A DNA stretch of 64,000 nt from a virus, in the IMG/VR virus record IMGVR_UViG_3300035698_022074, positions 1-64,000 of that record. The stretch is one strand, 5' to 3'. The stretch's first letter is position 1, and each line of letters opens with the position of its first letter. Positions 7,102 through 9,286 of the stretch are shown here, in pieces. Below the pieces are notes generated by a model. The model saw only the letters and a list, made by a program, of their open reading frames with translations, was not told the origin of the DNA and did not search any database. The position numbers were made by a program, and so were the translations under genes.

Positions 7102-7192
7102 GGGTCGCTGTCCCGAGTTGGCCGTAGGGTCCGGACTTTTAATCCGACGTGTGAAAGCACCATCCTGGGTTCGAATCCCAGGCGGCCCACCA
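7102..7192 (+). tRNA. Atypical type-II tRNA with UUU (Lys) anticodon and A73
   Basis: Acceptor gggtcgc/gcggccc is Lys-like. Anticodon stem ccgga/tccga with loop cttttaa. A 17-nt variable arm carries its own hairpin gtg-tgaaag-cac. T-loop ttcgaat, aCCA. Confidence 0.45.
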
Positions 7193-7200
7193 TTTTCGCT

Positions 7201-7224
7201 TCTTTGACATCTCTATACGAATAA
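7201..7224 (+). promoter_or_regulatory. Conserved promoter-like motif, copy 2 (upstream of tRNA array 2)
   Basis: tctttgacatctctatacgaataa. The 17-nt core is identical to 106-122. Confidence 0.45.
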
Positions 7225-7317
7225 TTACAGAAACAGCTGGTGGTTAGCCAGTGCTGGTGGTCGAACAGCCTTACCATTTCTCGGTGAGGGACGTCGCGGC
7301 GCGATCAGCTACTTTTT

Positions 7318-7392
7318 GCTCCGTTCGTCTAGCGGCTAGGACGCTGGTTTTTCACACCGGTAAGAGGGGTTCGATTCCCCTACGGAGTACCA
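7318..7392 (+). tRNA. tRNA-Glu(TTC)
   Basis: Acceptor gctccgt/acggagt, D arm gtctagcggctaggac, anticodon stem ctggt/accgg with loop ttttcac, T-loop ttcgatt, aCCA. Confidence 0.7.
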
Positions 7393-7472
7393 TTAAGGTT
7401 GCGGAGACCCTTTAGGACGTAAGTTGACTTTGTGCTAGTCAATCCACTTAAAAACTGGTTCCATTCCGAGAT

Positions 7473-7547
7473 GCGTCGATAGTATTAATGCAAAACGTTA
7501 GGCTGTTAACCTAAAAGATGTGAGTTCAAGTCTCGCTCGGCGCGCCA
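7473..7547 (+). tRNA. tRNA-Asn(GTT), type I
   Basis: Acceptor gcgtcga/tcggcgc, anticodon stem ttagg/cctaa with loop ctgttaa, T-loop ttcaagt, gCCA. Confidence 0.6.
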
Positions 7548-7575
7548 TTTTAACCAAAACAAGCCAGATGTAGAT

Positions 7576-7935
7576 ATGCTTAGATGTATGAGTTACAATA
7601 CAACACAGAATCGAGTTCACATGCTAATTAGAGAGACAATTGAAAGCCTCGCGCTTGTCAGAAAAGGATCTCTTGACGAACTACGAGATGCGCTTCTTGA
7701 TCTTTACATCGAAAAAGCAGCAAAATTAGCAACAGGAGAAATGACCCCTAAAGAGCTTCGAGTCCATCAAGTAGCTGTGGCTGCTAATCTCGGATGGGAT
7801 TATGAAGAGTATCTTGATGCATCAAATCGAGAGATTAGAGCTGGTGAAGAGGAACAGCAAGCATACATACAAAGTAGAATTGATGACGAGAAAGAAGCTA
7901 TGCGACTTGATCAAAGCGATTTTATTGATATATAA
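7576..7935 (+). CDS. hypothetical protein (119 aa)
   Basis: ATG start. Acidic, helical-looking sequence. Confidence 0.5.
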   Translation: MLRCMSYNTTQNRVHMLIRETIESLALVRKGSLDELRDALLDLYIEKAAKLATGEMTPKELRVHQVAVAANLGWDYEEYLDASNREIRAGEEEQQAYIQSRIDDEKEAMRLDQSDFIDI

Positions 7936-7942
7936 TACATAT

Positions 7943-8018
7943 ACACTCGTAGCATAAGGGATAATGCGGTCGGTTTCTACCCGATCAGATCTGGGTTCGA
8001 TTCCTAGCGAGTGTACCA
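7943..8018 (+). tRNA. tRNA-Arg(TCT)
   Basis: Acceptor acactcg/cgagtgt, D arm gcataagggataatgc, anticodon stem gtcgg/ccgat with loop tttctac, T-loop ttcgatt, aCCA. Confidence 0.7.
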
Positions 8019-8201
8019 TTTTAAAAGTTTCGCCCTTTGCGAAAAAGAAAGATATGTATCATTGAACTCAACAACAAAGGTTGCAAACAATGAAGATATC
8101 CAGAGGGAAGCTAAGACAGATCATTTTTCATTAAGGAAGAACTAGAAGTTCTAGAAGCCGTCGGCGATTCAGAGTTTGATAAAACTCGTGGGTACTCAAA
8201 A

Positions 8202-8465
8202 ATGCCCGCAGATTATGGCGAAAAAGTTCAAAGAGGAGCATCTTCACAAGCAGCTGCTCGTTCAAGTGAAAAGTTCGCAATTTTGGTAGACGCTATTTAT
8301 CAAGGAATACTCAGTTCTGGTCATCATTCTGCCGGCTACACTGGATTACTAGGTAGTTTTGAAAAGATTCTCAAGCAGGGCAAGCGCGTATCAGAAAGTG
8401 AAATAGAACAAATGTTCAGCGCATTACTCACAAGCCCGGACTTCAGAACACTTTTTGACGAATAA
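8202..8465 (+). CDS. hypothetical protein (87 aa)
   Basis: ATG start. Confidence 0.45.
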   Translation: MPADYGEKVQRGASSQAAARSSEKFAILVDAIYQGILSSGHHSAGYTGLLGSFEKILKQGKRVSESEIEQMFSALLTSPDFRTLFDE

Positions 8466-8499
8466 AAATAATCGAAGATGTGTAAATTAATCAGCATCC

Positions 8500-8508
8500 T
8501 GATATAAT
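8500..8508 (+). promoter_or_regulatory. Extended -10 element TGaTATAAT upstream of the tRNA at 8531
   Basis: Sequence cctGaTATAATag lies 23 nt before the tRNA 5' end. Confidence 0.4.
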
Positions 8509-8530
8509 AGATACATCAAAACAACATCAT

Positions 8531-8604
8531 GGAACGATAGCTTAATGGAAAGCGCTTGGTCGACATCCAAGCAGATATCAGTTCAAATCTGATTCGTTCT
8601 ACCA
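8531..8604 (+). tRNA. tRNA with GAC anticodon (Val?), unusual C33
   Basis: Acceptor ggaacga/tcgttct, anticodon stem cttgg/ccaag with loop tcgacat, T-loop ttcaaat, aCCA. Confidence 0.45.
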
Positions 8605-8610
8605 CTTCAT

Positions 8611-8685
8611 GCACCTATAGCTCAATGGATAGAGTAACCGGCTACGAATCGGTCGATCGGGGTTCGAATCCCTGTGGGTGTGCCA
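8611..8685 (+). tRNA. tRNA-Arg(ACG)
   Basis: Acceptor gcaccta/tgggtgt, anticodon stem accgg/tcggt with loop ctacgaa, T-loop ttcgaat, gCCA. Confidence 0.6.
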
Positions 8686-8692
8686 TTTTCCT

Positions 8693-8765
8693 CGAGGGTA
8701 CAGCGGGGTGCGGGCGGGGCCTTGGAAGCTTCTCTTGCTGGGTTCGACACCCAGACCTTCGACCA
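8693..8765 (+). tRNA. tRNA-Pro(TGG), C1-G72
   Basis: Acceptor cgagggt/accttcg, anticodon stem ggggc/gcttc with loop cttggaa, T-loop ttcgaca, aCCA. Short D region. Confidence 0.5.
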
Positions 8766-8771
8766 TTTTCT

Positions 8772-8847
8772 GGATTGCACGCATCTGTGGCGAGGCACTC
8801 GGCTCTTAACCGAGAAATGATGGGTTCGAACCCCATGCAGTCCACCA
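8772..8847 (+). tRNA. tRNA-Lys(CTT)
   Basis: Acceptor ggattgc/gcagtcc, anticodon stem ctcgg/ccgag with loop ctcttaa, T-loop ttcgaac, aCCA. Confidence 0.6.
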
Positions 8848-8865
8848 TTTTAACAAGAGAACAAA

Positions 8866-9099
8866 ATGTTCGACAATAAGTTAGAACCCGATTGGACAGA
8901 CGGAAACATGTCGTCAGGTAGTGATAAGTTCAATGCCTACATCGAGTTTGACCATGACACCAACATGTGGTTTATCTATCAGCTAGATTCTTCAGGGTCT
9001 TTAAAAGAATGCTTTCCAAAAATGACAAGTCAAGGGTTTAAGACTCGAGGGCGTGCCAAAGCTTGGATTAAGTCAAATAGAAAACGATACGAGTCATAA
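8866..9099 (+). CDS. hypothetical protein (77 aa)
   Basis: ATG start. Confidence 0.45.
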   Translation: MFDNKLEPDWTDGNMSSGSDKFNAYIEFDHDTNMWFIYQLDSSGSLKECFPKMTSQGFKTRGRAKAWIKSNRKRYES

Positions 9100-9110
9100 A
9101 AAAAATCTTA

Positions 9111-9200
9111 GGGTCGGTGGCCGAGCGGTCGAAGGCAAGAGGCTGTTAACCTCTCGTGGAGAAATCCCCATCATAAGTTCAAATCTTATCCGTCCCGCCA
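9111..9200 (+). tRNA. Atypical Ser-like type-II tRNA with GUU (Asn) anticodon, G73
   Basis: D arm tggccgagcggtcgaaggca is nearly identical to E. coli tRNA-Ser. The anticodon arm agagg-ctgttaa-cctct is perfectly paired. 18-nt variable arm, T-loop ttcaaat, gCCA. Acceptor 4-69 is a T-T mismatch. Confidence 0.45.
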
Positions 9201-9205
9201 TTTTT

Positions 9206-9286
9206 GCAGGTGTTCCTCAAGGTGAGGGTCCGGTCTGCCAGTCCGGCGCGAAAGCATGGCGAGTTCGATTCTCGTCACCTGCTCCA
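9206..9286 (+). tRNA. Atypical type-II tRNA with apparent GCC (Gly) anticodon (U-U at 31-39)
   Basis: Acceptor gcaggtg/cacctgc, anticodon arm ccggt-ctgccag-tccgg, 12-nt variable arm forming gc-gaaa-gc, T-loop ttcgatt, tCCA. Confidence 0.4.

Follow-up and report, generated by a model that had tools for sequence, protein, structure and literature searches.

Long-variable-arm tRNA genes with lysine, asparagine and glycine anticodons in a phage tRNA array

Class II transfer RNAs (tRNAs), which in bacteria serve Ser, Leu and Tyr, carry a hairpin in the variable region between the anticodon and T arms, and bacterial tRNA genes have been called "surprisingly uniform" in a review (PMC4033280). We analysed a stretch of 64,000 nucleotides of viral DNA (positions 1 to 64,000 of IMG/VR record IMGVR_UViG_3300035698_022074; hereafter the window), whose tRNA array contains three genes with such an extra arm and with the anticodons of Lys (UUU), Asn (GUU) and Gly (GCC), starting at positions 7102, 9111 and 9206. 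The Asn gene and, less clearly, the Lys gene, but not the Gly gene, also share with class II tRNAs a 3-bp D stem and a long D loop of the Ser/Tyr type, and the arm sequence of the window genes is like that of bacterial tRNA-Ser, NNN-GAAA-NNN-CAU-C. Unlike class II tRNAs, they have anticodons, discriminator bases and acceptor stems of Lys, Asn and Gly, and the stem of the arm has 2–4 bp, compared with 6–7 bp in bacterial tRNA-Ser.

Long arms on unexpected anticodons have been described before. The nev-tRNAs of nematodes combine class II bodies with anticodons of class I amino acids (Gly CCC and Ile UAU; Hamashima 2012, reviewed in PMC4033280), but they are eukaryotic and weakly expressed, carry Leu/Ser elements and place Leu at Gly codons, whereas the phage class has cognate marks. 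Bacterial allo-tRNAs have a long arm and many non-Ser anticodons, and some of them lie in phage tRNA clusters (PMC7609411, PMC5389517). Their 12-bp acceptor branch is divided into acceptor/T helices of 8/4 or 9/3 and their identity is Ser, in contrast to the 7/5 helices and the marks of the window genes, which are not Ser-like; 8/4 Ser and His tRNAs were reported in phages in the allo-tRNA paper. The selC* tRNA-Cys sets a precedent of another kind, being a long-arm tRNA that is charged by the synthetase cognate to its anticodon via U73 and GCA (PMC5389517). Selenocysteine tRNA (tRNA-Sec) also has a long variable arm, and its model is the best match of the Lys gene within the Rfam tRNA clan, but the score is 28.8 bits where 47 are required (RF01852), the helices are 7/5 and not 8/5, and the anticodon is UUU and not UCA.

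In terms of function, the nearest analogue may be the phage T5 variants that escape AriB, the nuclease of the PARIS defence. These too are phage tRNAs for Lys(UUU), Asn(GUU) and Thr(UGU) with changes in the body and redundant copies (PMC11464382, PMC12409363), and anticodon-loop escape variants of phage tRNAs are also known (PMC10264068). The T5 variants have short arms, with point changes at positions 16, 39 and 41, and escape AriB, whereas in the tRNAs described here the corresponding difference would consist of an entire additional arm and an altered D arm.

Three tRNA genes with an extra arm

Genes were called with ARAGORN, cross-checked against the Rfam tRNA-clan models (threshold of the tRNA model, 29 bits) and folded without constraint; helices were assigned with a parser that presumes 7/5 acceptor/T helices. 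An earlier note on this DNA had placed tRNAs with UUU, GUU and GCC anticodons at 7102, 9111 and 9206, and ARAGORN returns them at the same positions.

The tRNA-Lys(UUU) gene (7102..7192, plus strand) is 91 nt long, with acceptor stem GGGUCGC/GCGGCCC, A73 and an encoded CCA in both the ARAGORN call and the fold. Its variable region (7148..7164, plus strand) has 17 nt, C-GUGU-GAAA-GCAC-CAUC according to sequence, fold and parser, and forms a 4-bp stem capped by a GAAA tetraloop, with 4 nt at the 3' end left unpaired; an identical copy of this region occurs in another viral locus (L051). The D arm, with a CCC/GGG stem and a 12-nt Tyr/Ser-like loop, is 6–7 edits away from Tyr/Ser arms and 8 from type I arms, and its numbering is uncertain since 3 nt separate the acceptor stem from CCC. 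The gene scores below the Rfam tRNA threshold.

The tRNA-Asn(GUU) gene (9111..9200, plus strand; 90 nt) is found by ARAGORN and by the Rfam tRNA model (53.7 bits) and has G73 and acceptor stem GGGUCGG/CCGUCCC, which contains a U4xU69 mismatch. Its D arm is of the Ser type, GCC-GAGCGGUCGAA-GGC with a G13xA22 mismatch, and the D arm of a viral tRNA-Ser is only 2 edits away, in agreement with the Ser-like D arm noticed earlier. The variable region (9155..9172, plus strand) has 18 nt, CGUGGAGAAAUCCCCAUC, in the ARAGORN drawing, the minimum free energy (MFE) fold and a hairpin scan. The arm, CGUGGA-GAAA-UCCCCAUC, can adopt two folds, either GGA-GAAA-UCC followed by a CCAUC tail or a 4-bp GUGG/CCAU stem with an 8-nt loop.

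The tRNA-Gly(GCC) gene (9206..9286, plus strand; 81 nt) has acceptor stem GCAGGUG/CACCUGC and U73 (ARAGORN; Rfam 31.7 bits), and its anticodon stem contains a U31-U39 mismatch. The variable region (9247..9258, plus strand), C-GC-GAAA-GC-AUG, forms a 2-bp mini-hairpin with a GAAA loop by sequence and fold. Since the D stem has 4–5 bp with a tiny loop of 3–5 nt, which is not of the class II type, and the arm has only 2 bp, we regard this gene as an ordinary Gly-type body with an inserted mini-hairpin.

Unconstrained folding returns the acceptor, anticodon, variable and T helices of all three genes; the MFE z-scores (-0.6 to -1.7) are unremarkable, as usual for tRNAs, and uninformative. ARAGORN gives each gene a 7-bp acceptor stem, a 5-bp T stem and an encoded CCA. 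The anticodon loops all have 7 nt (CUUUUAA in Lys, CUGUUAA in Asn and CUGCCAG in Gly), with U33 and a purine at position 37. The variable regions of 17, 18 and 12 nt form hairpins of their own, with stems of 4, 3–4 and 2 bp closed by GAAA, and so qualify as class II by the definition used here (at least 10 nt and a hairpin). The genes at 7102, 9111 and 9206 are real tRNA genes. The 17-nt (Lys) and 12-nt (Gly) variable arms, the loops, A73 (Lys) and G73 (Asn) in the earlier note are all confirmed, and the outcomes that it had named as fatal to its proposal, 8- or 9-nt anticodon loops or Ser/Leu anticodons, are not what the software assigns. Its description of the three as "unmistakable type-II bodies" holds for the Lys and Asn genes but not for the Gly gene, which is type-I-like.

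A recurrent class in phage tRNA arrays

We searched cultured and deposited phages with BLAST and read the matching loci with ARAGORN. The Lys gene matched 14 phage records and the Asn gene a single one, in which the match is a long tRNA-Cys; the Gly gene had no BLAST match among cultured phages. According to ARAGORN, Ruegeria phages V10 and DSS3P8 carry a long Lys(CUU) gene of 88 nt, and Xanthomonas phage XacN1 carries one of 89 nt that adjoins a 77-nt Lys gene. Xanthomonas phage X1 has a long Asn gene of 86 nt and a long Lys gene of 89 nt, each beside a 73-nt type I twin, Pseudomonas phage PA1C and its relatives have a long Asn gene of 87 nt, and Xoo-sp13 has a long Cys gene of 89 nt and a long Asn gene of 87 nt. 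Members of the class also occur in two uncultured phages of ~635 kb, one of which has three tandem long Lys genes. The long Asn gene of Cellulophaga phage phi4:1 (89 nt) is labelled tRNA-OTHER/pseudo in GenBank, and a long Thr(UGU) gene is annotated in Pseudomonas phage HPP-Temi. GenBank labels of class members are either plain tRNA-Lys or tRNA-Asn or pseudo-tRNA, and the XacN1 genome paper never mentions the variable arm. A full-text literature search, with most subscription journals outside its coverage, brought up no account of long-arm phage tRNAs for Lys, Asn, Thr or Cys, and the phage class is apparently undescribed.

We scanned viral contigs with an anticodon-blind motif for the variable and T arms, GAAA-N3-5-CATC-N3-GGTTCGAATCC, which gave at least 119 loci. 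The class was counted as unique tRNAs with a variable region of at least 9 nt and an anticodon other than those of Ser, Leu and Tyr; these counts, and those from the cellular scan and the neutral sample below, are counts among the matches listed. The viral motif loci comprise Lys 31, Asn 24, Thr(UGU) 15, Met 13, Cys 11, Ile 10, Pro 7, Trp 5, Val 5, Gly 5 and Glu 4, plus others. The identical motif, applied to one genome per bacterial or archaeal species, gave at least 120 loci, and 111 of the 114 carriers listed are tRNA-Ser; of the other three, two are long tRNA-Met genes of Paraburkholderia and the third is a chance match. In the loci listed, further cellular long-arm tRNAs outside Ser, Leu and Tyr were found only in a 20-tRNA array of a Haliscomenobacter metagenome-assembled genome. 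In a motif-neutral viral sample, for which a generic T loop and CCA were required, a variable region of at least 9 nt is present in 20 of the 381 unique tRNAs listed that are not Ser, Leu or Tyr tRNAs (~5%), and these lie mostly in loci with 11–38 tRNAs. The long-arm class recurs in phage tRNA arrays as a minority, and cells seldom carry it. The design is present in cultured jumbo phages and in more than 100 viral contigs.

Two side observations belong here. The Paraburkholderia tRNA-Met(CAU) genes (L136, L236) have acceptor GGGCCGG, A73 and the arm CUCC-GAAA-GGA-CAUC, and among the matches listed they are the only class members from cells that do not lie in a tRNA array. A separate recurrent class of tRNA-Ile(UAU) has a variable arm of ~21–25 nt, often with ...GCGCCAGAUUAGCG... 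(L265, L304, L307, L314, L337, L354, L177 and others), and is the commonest long-arm type listed in the neutral viral sample; it may be related to the allo-tRNA(UAU) group of Mukai 2017.

To the arm itself we applied a covariation analysis. We aligned 44 distinct variable regions of 15 nt, drawn from eight anticodon classes. The three pairs that flank the loop are formed in 93.9% of cells, compared with 44.8% in shuffles, and 62 double (compensatory) changes are seen, values that 0 of 500 shuffles reached; slid registers give 21–42%. At least 90% of the aligned sequences keep each of loop bases 1, 3 and 4 (G, A, A), and the same holds for each of two Cs in the 3' tail. In a larger set, 69 of 86 regions have at least three consecutive pairs (~8.5 expected), formed by 30 different stems. 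The class hairpin is a covarying, selected structure.

Among the matches listed, bacterial tRNA-Ser carriers of the motif follow the pattern U-AUG-NNN-GAAA-NNN-CAU-C, with 18–22 nt and stems of at least 6 bp in 105 of 118, whereas the phage class follows N-NNN(N)-GAAA-(N)NNN-CAUC, mostly with 15–17 nt and with stems of 3–4 bp in 107 of 148. The phage arm thus resembles the serine arm minus its 5' AUG, and since this partner is absent the CAU strand is usually unpaired. The D arm is nearest to tRNA-Ser/Tyr in 75 of 157 class members listed, compared with 12 of 150 control type I tRNAs, and nearest to Leu in only 2 of the 157; that of the Lys gene is 8 edits from Leu. Viral tRNA-Ser arms span 14–23 nt, and the stems of the window's own tRNA-Ser have 4–5 bp. 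Because length alone does not separate the class from viral tRNA-Ser, we did not use the length of the variable region to exclude SerRS.

Two relatives of the window are informative. A JGI metagenome contig (L248) is ~99% identical and keeps all three genes; the Asn gene is identical, and one D-loop substitution in the Lys gene is the sole change in the three. This contig encodes, at its positions 3046-5785 and just upstream of the point at which the window starts, an RtcB RNA ligase (tRNA repair) and a DnaJ chaperone. In a side observation, its long Asn and long Gly genes are separated by ~90 nt of additional spacer, of which roughly the last 30 nt are an extra 3' tRNA fragment. A more distant relative (L251), whose vault protein (described below) is 52% identical, has the same order of Ser-Ser-Leu-Leu-Ser tRNAs, vault gene, array and transfer-messenger RNA (tmRNA). 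In the slot that long Asn, long Gly and Trp fill in the window, this relative has a 75-nt Asn(GUU), a 77-nt Gly(GCC) and Trp, which indicates that the long-arm genes take the places of ordinary decoders.

Amino acid identity and the purpose of the arm

The identity elements on record (PMC9976931) are as follows: for Lys, the anticodon and A73; for Asn, the anticodon and G73, a set that can be transplanted into another tRNA body; for bacterial Gly, C35, C36, U73, G1-C72 and C2-G71; for Ser, mainly the long arm, with G73, G1-C72 and G2-C71; for Escherichia coli Leu, A73, the A15-U48 Levitt pair, the placement of G18G19 and A20a in the D loop; and for Tyr, A73 and U35 as major elements, to which G34, A36 and the long arm contribute. 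The three window genes contain the full Lys, Asn and Gly sets, respectively. The Ser set is not found in the Lys gene (A73, a 4-bp stem and 4-nt tail) or in the Gly gene (U73, C2-G71, a 2-bp stem), and the Asn gene is borderline, with G73, G1-C72 and G2-C71 present and an irregular arm of 3–4 bp. As for Leu, A73 is present in the Lys gene only. The Tyr set fails for the Asn gene (G73) and the Gly gene (U73, C35); the Lys gene has A73, U35, G1-C72 and an arm of Tyr length, but U34 and U36.

The same correspondence is seen in the rest of the class. Among the matches listed, the discriminator base is U in 11 of 11 Cys, 5 of 5 Gly and 14 of 15 Thr tRNAs, G in 5 of 5 Trp and 19 of 24 Asn, and A in 7 of 7 Pro and 22 of 31 Lys, mirroring the short-arm tRNAs of the same loci. 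Further hallmarks are C1-G72 in Pro, A1 in Trp, a C1xA72 mismatch in initiator-like Met and U1-A72 in many Asn tRNAs. We also used a naive-Bayes classifier that reads acceptor positions 1–7 and base 73, was trained on type I and Ser/Leu/Tyr tRNAs and has a leave-one-out accuracy of 53%. It assigned 57 of the 138 long-arm tRNAs listed to the class of their own anticodon and placed that class within the top three for 101; none was called Ser, and 14 were called Leu or Tyr. The Gly gene was called Gly by ~3 log units, and the Asn gene gave a near-tie of Asp, Trp, Asn, Arg and Ser.

When the anticodon is masked, 11 of the 12 nearest neighbours of the Lys gene are long phage tRNA-Lys (UUU and CUU; 72–77% identity), ten with A73 and one with U73, and one of them has an identical arm; the twelfth is a long tRNA-Met from a bacterium. 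Ordinary tRNA-Gly genes are among the closest neighbours of the Gly gene. Judged from sequence, the identity marks across the class follow the amino acid of the anticodon, and cognate charging of the long-arm tRNAs is probable, with lower confidence for the Asn gene than for the Lys and Gly genes.

Several points weigh against cognate charging. LysRS and AsnRS are class II synthetases, which reach the tRNA from the side of the variable loop, so that a long arm could hinder them. The classifier leaves the Lys gene in a tie of Ala, Lys and Tyr, and this gene has both main determinants of E. coli TyrRS (A73 and U35) together with a long arm. With its anticodon masked, the Asn gene is closest to viral and bacterial tRNA-Ser and to long Cys, Lys and Asn tRNAs, all at ~70%, and its G73, G1-C72, G2-C71, Ser-type D arm and 18-nt arm would also suit SerRS. 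Charging with Ser stays a live possibility for the Asn gene alone.

On balance, we give a probability of about 0.6 to the reading that the three genes encode correctly charged decoders on an extra-arm scaffold. In such tRNAs a GAAA (GNRA)-capped hairpin would be combined with the anticodon, base 73 and acceptor marks of an amino acid that normally has a short-arm tRNA. LysRS and AsnRS would read the anticodon and base 73, and GlyRS would read C35, C36, U73 and the first acceptor pairs; since the synthetases read these parts, the tRNAs are most likely charged with Lys, Asn and Gly. AAA/AAG, AAY and GGY codons would then be read correctly, with each long-arm tRNA serving as an additional or the sole copy within the phage set.

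As for the purpose of the arm, escape from host tRNA-targeting nucleases is the possibility that we favour, though only tentatively. Projecting next to the anticodon stem on the side of its 3' strand, the arm would, together with the altered D loop, make the tRNA a poor substrate for host tRNA-cutting nucleases, while the anticodon and base 73 would stay readable by the synthetase despite the change in shape. Nucleases of this kind read body features of Lys, Asn and Thr tRNAs; AriB, the worked example, cleaves tRNAs for Lys(UUU), Thr(UGU) and Asn(GUU) at positions 40/41 and also needs contacts beyond the anticodon stem-loop, with the D loop among others, and phage tRNAs rescue infection from tRNA-cutting defences such as PARIS (PMC12409363). 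We measured enrichment in two samples, one selected by the arm motif and one neutral. Among the matches listed, the long arm is over-represented on U36 (ANN-codon) decoders (odds ratio 2.3, p=9e-4; neutral sample 5.3, p=1e-3) and on the AriB targets Lys-UUU, Thr-UGU and Asn-GUU (odds ratio 2.3, p=0.007; neutral sample 3.4, p=0.03). A type I twin of the same anticodon accompanies 33% of the long-arm genes listed, compared with a baseline of 21% for type I genes. It is on these enrichments, the type I twins, the RtcB ligase in L248 and the precedent of rescue by phage tRNAs that the proposal of escape is based.

The window itself has such twins for two of its long-arm genes. As the earlier note had stated, ARAGORN finds an ordinary type I tRNA-Lys(UUU) at 10312..10387 (plus strand; Rfam 48.4 bits) and an ordinary type I tRNA-Asn(GUU) at 7473..7547 (plus strand; Rfam 54.5 bits). 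The former has U36-A-A-A-C-C, a T5-like A39 variant, and this is the sequence of the AriB-resistant T5 tRNA-Lys (PMC12409363).

Other observations speak against escape as the purpose. The long Lys gene retains U39 and U36-A-A-U-C, the sequence that AriB cuts. Several anticodon nucleases are reported to need the anticodon stem-loop only, and at least one defence, Septu/PtuAB, to cut the variable loop of tRNA-Tyr. The enrichments given above ignore relatedness between the tRNAs.

A broader proposal, which we regard as doubtful, is that of a parallel, shape-shifted tRNA set. In large phages, a Ser-derived scaffold would have been re-addressed to Lys, Asn, Thr, Cys, Met, Pro, Trp, Gly and other amino acids by swapping anticodon, discriminator and acceptor, its truncated arm would evade SerRS, and the resulting shape would hide the tRNAs from tRNA-cutting immunity or mark them as "self" for a phage factor, with correct charging by the host synthetases retained.

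Alternatively, the tRNAs could be correctly charged decoders whose arm has no role in defence, being either baggage inherited from a Ser scaffold or a clamp that helps poorly modified, massively expressed tRNAs to fold. The likeness of the arm to that of bacterial tRNA-Ser with the 5' AUG missing and the Ser-type D arms of about half of the long-arm tRNAs listed are in line with this, and GNRA loops are generic stabilisers that also cap the arms of tRNA-Ser and tRNA-Leu. In two thirds of the cases listed, moreover, the long-arm tRNA is the sole copy of its anticodon at the locus. Nevertheless, we consider this alternative unlikely, as it leaves unexplained the near-absence of the design from cellular genomes among the matches listed, its concentration on U36 decoders and AriB targets, and the type I twins kept beside long-arm copies in X1, XacN1 and the window. 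An origin from tRNA-Ser by single anticodon mutations was considered and rejected, since one-step neighbours of Ser anticodons are not significantly enriched (odds ratio 0.7–1.2).

Less probable still is mis-insertion, in which the long arm would lead to charging by SerRS, TyrRS or LeuRS and thus to Ser, Tyr or Leu at AAR, AAY or GGY codons; the earlier note had proposed this for Ser and Leu. There are precedents, as a nev-tRNA-Gly inserts Leu (PMC4033280) and allo-tRNAs insert Ser (PMC7609411), and the variable arm is the main basis of serine identity. The Asn gene adds its G73, G1-C72, G2-C71 and Ser-like D arm, and the 3' half of its arm (UCCCCAUC) resembles UCCCAUC of the bacterial tRNA-Ser arm, while A73, U35 and the long arm of the Lys gene make up the identity core of TyrRS. 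However, discriminator and acceptor track the tRNA's own amino acid across the class and are never Ser-like among the matches listed, stems are 3–4 bp and not the 6–7 bp of bacterial tRNA-Ser, with the CAU strand usually unpaired, and the anticodons show no enrichment for one-step neighbours of Ser anticodons. The long-Lys family alternates between UUU and CUU and keeps A73, and in the Gly gene the acceptor is that of Gly and the body is Gly-like. Since the marks follow the anticodon and L251 has type I Asn and Gly genes in the same slot, mis-insertion of Ser or Leu is improbable for the Lys and Gly genes; the proposal survives for the Asn gene alone, on account of its Ser-like body.

That the genes specify non-translational RNAs (nuclease decoys, regulatory mimics or decaying pseudogenes) is very improbable, even though the phi4:1 copy is flagged tRNA-OTHER/pseudo, the Lys gene lies under the Rfam threshold, U-U mismatches occur in the Asn acceptor stem and the Gly anticodon stem, and the PARIS paper raises decoy action of phage tRNAs as a possibility, because no element that translation requires is lost (7/5 helices, U33, purine 37, T loop, encoded CCA), the class shows covarying stems and preserved identity marks, the Gly gene is the sole tRNA with a GCC anticodon that ARAGORN finds in the window, and the three genes are unchanged in L248 save for one D-loop base; the regulatory mimics suggested in the earlier note gain no support from genes that share the spacing and the U-rich trailer of their neighbours.

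The array and its surroundings

The window contains 39 tRNAs and a tmRNA by ARAGORN, to which Rfam adds four tRNA-like matches. Its genes all lie on one strand, the G+C content is ~40%, and the proteins include PIN-PhoH, a helicase and sugar-nucleotide enzymes, among others; this gene content is the make-up of a very large phage. An ordinary type I tRNA-Gly(UCC) at 9657..9732 (plus strand; ARAGORN and alignment) has acceptor GCAGGUA/UACCUGC and U73, nearly equal to those of the long Gly(GCC) gene.

Nearly all tRNAs of the array (444-11939) encode CCA, with a U-rich trailer (CCAUUUU) directly after it, a shared signal for processing or termination. Fragments of tRNA 3' halves lie at ~9380-9480, and a tRNA-His(GUG)-like gene at 10150-10225 scores 41.1 bits in Rfam and is found by ARAGORN only at a relaxed threshold. 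The reverse anomaly occurs at 2002-2078, where a tRNA-Leu(CAA) of 77 nt has a short type I variable loop and A73. Variable loops of 5-6 nt are present in 38 of 90 unique tabulated Leu tRNAs of the viral loci, among the matches listed, and arm-less Leu tRNAs are therefore also present in phage arrays.

Within the tRNA region, positions 3979-6666 encode an 895-residue homologue of the major vault protein (MVP) with MVP shoulder and Vault_3 domains, an unusual cargo for a phage. Its nearest non-phage relatives come from Myxococcota genomes (~50-55% identity), which may serve as a hint, and only a hint, about the host. A search of viral contigs guided by this neighbouring vault protein returned no relatives. 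By protein, a 278-kb contig (P0004) is the best deeper relative, and three further candidates (P0010, P0006 and P0003) were rejected as phage relatives since they are bacterial (Myxococcota-like) loci without tRNA arrays; a further contig (L249) was set aside as too short.

Other genes of the window are related to translation or to the physiology of the host. An open reading frame (ORF) at 13366-13887 encodes a truncated class I release factor of 173 residues, comprising the end of the PCRF domain and the RF-1 domain, and an amber-reading tRNA(CUA) lies ~1 kb downstream at 14939-15015. The two may have a part in stop-codon handling. This tRNA is flanked by two irregular tRNA-like genes found by Rfam only (14858-14930 and 15020-15096), the second of which is read as Ile-UAU with a 3-nt insert by the intron option of ARAGORN. 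A TilS-like PP-loop ORF (25243-25980; PF01171, E=2.5e-36) stands directly before a tRNA(CAU) at 25904-25980, which suggests that the phage encodes a lysidine-type modification of its own tRNA-Ile2. A 93-nt tRNA-like gene at 24603-24695, after tRNA-Arg(CCU), scores 31 bits in Rfam; ARAGORN reports it only when the threshold is relaxed, and then with a long insert and a 4-nt "anticodon", GUAG. The tmRNA at 30901-31268 (Rfam 119.8 bits) has the tag peptide ANNNSHFQTALAA, and the phage also carries a bacterial stress-kinase module, the trio DUF444(YeaH)/SpoVR/PrkA, at 19904-24417.

Textbooks and reviews confine long arms in bacteria to Ser, Leu, Tyr and Sec, whereas the phage design serves at least 12 other amino acids. 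The class includes cultured, tractable phages (XacN1, X1, PA1C, Ruegeria V10 and Cellulophaga phi4:1), in which the copies have been annotated without comment or as pseudogenes, and annotation tools based on isotype models would mislabel or discard long-arm genes. If the tRNAs are charged correctly, LysRS, AsnRS, ThrRS, CysRS and other synthetases must tolerate a class II body, and such tolerance, if true, would bear on the rules of tRNA identity and on the design of orthogonal tRNAs. Should the arm block host tRNases, phages would have a new way to evade immunity by tRNA structure, in addition to the point mutations of T5. And if the shape-shifted set is real, it would break the rule that long arms occur only on Ser, Leu, Tyr and Sec tRNAs in the bacterial world.

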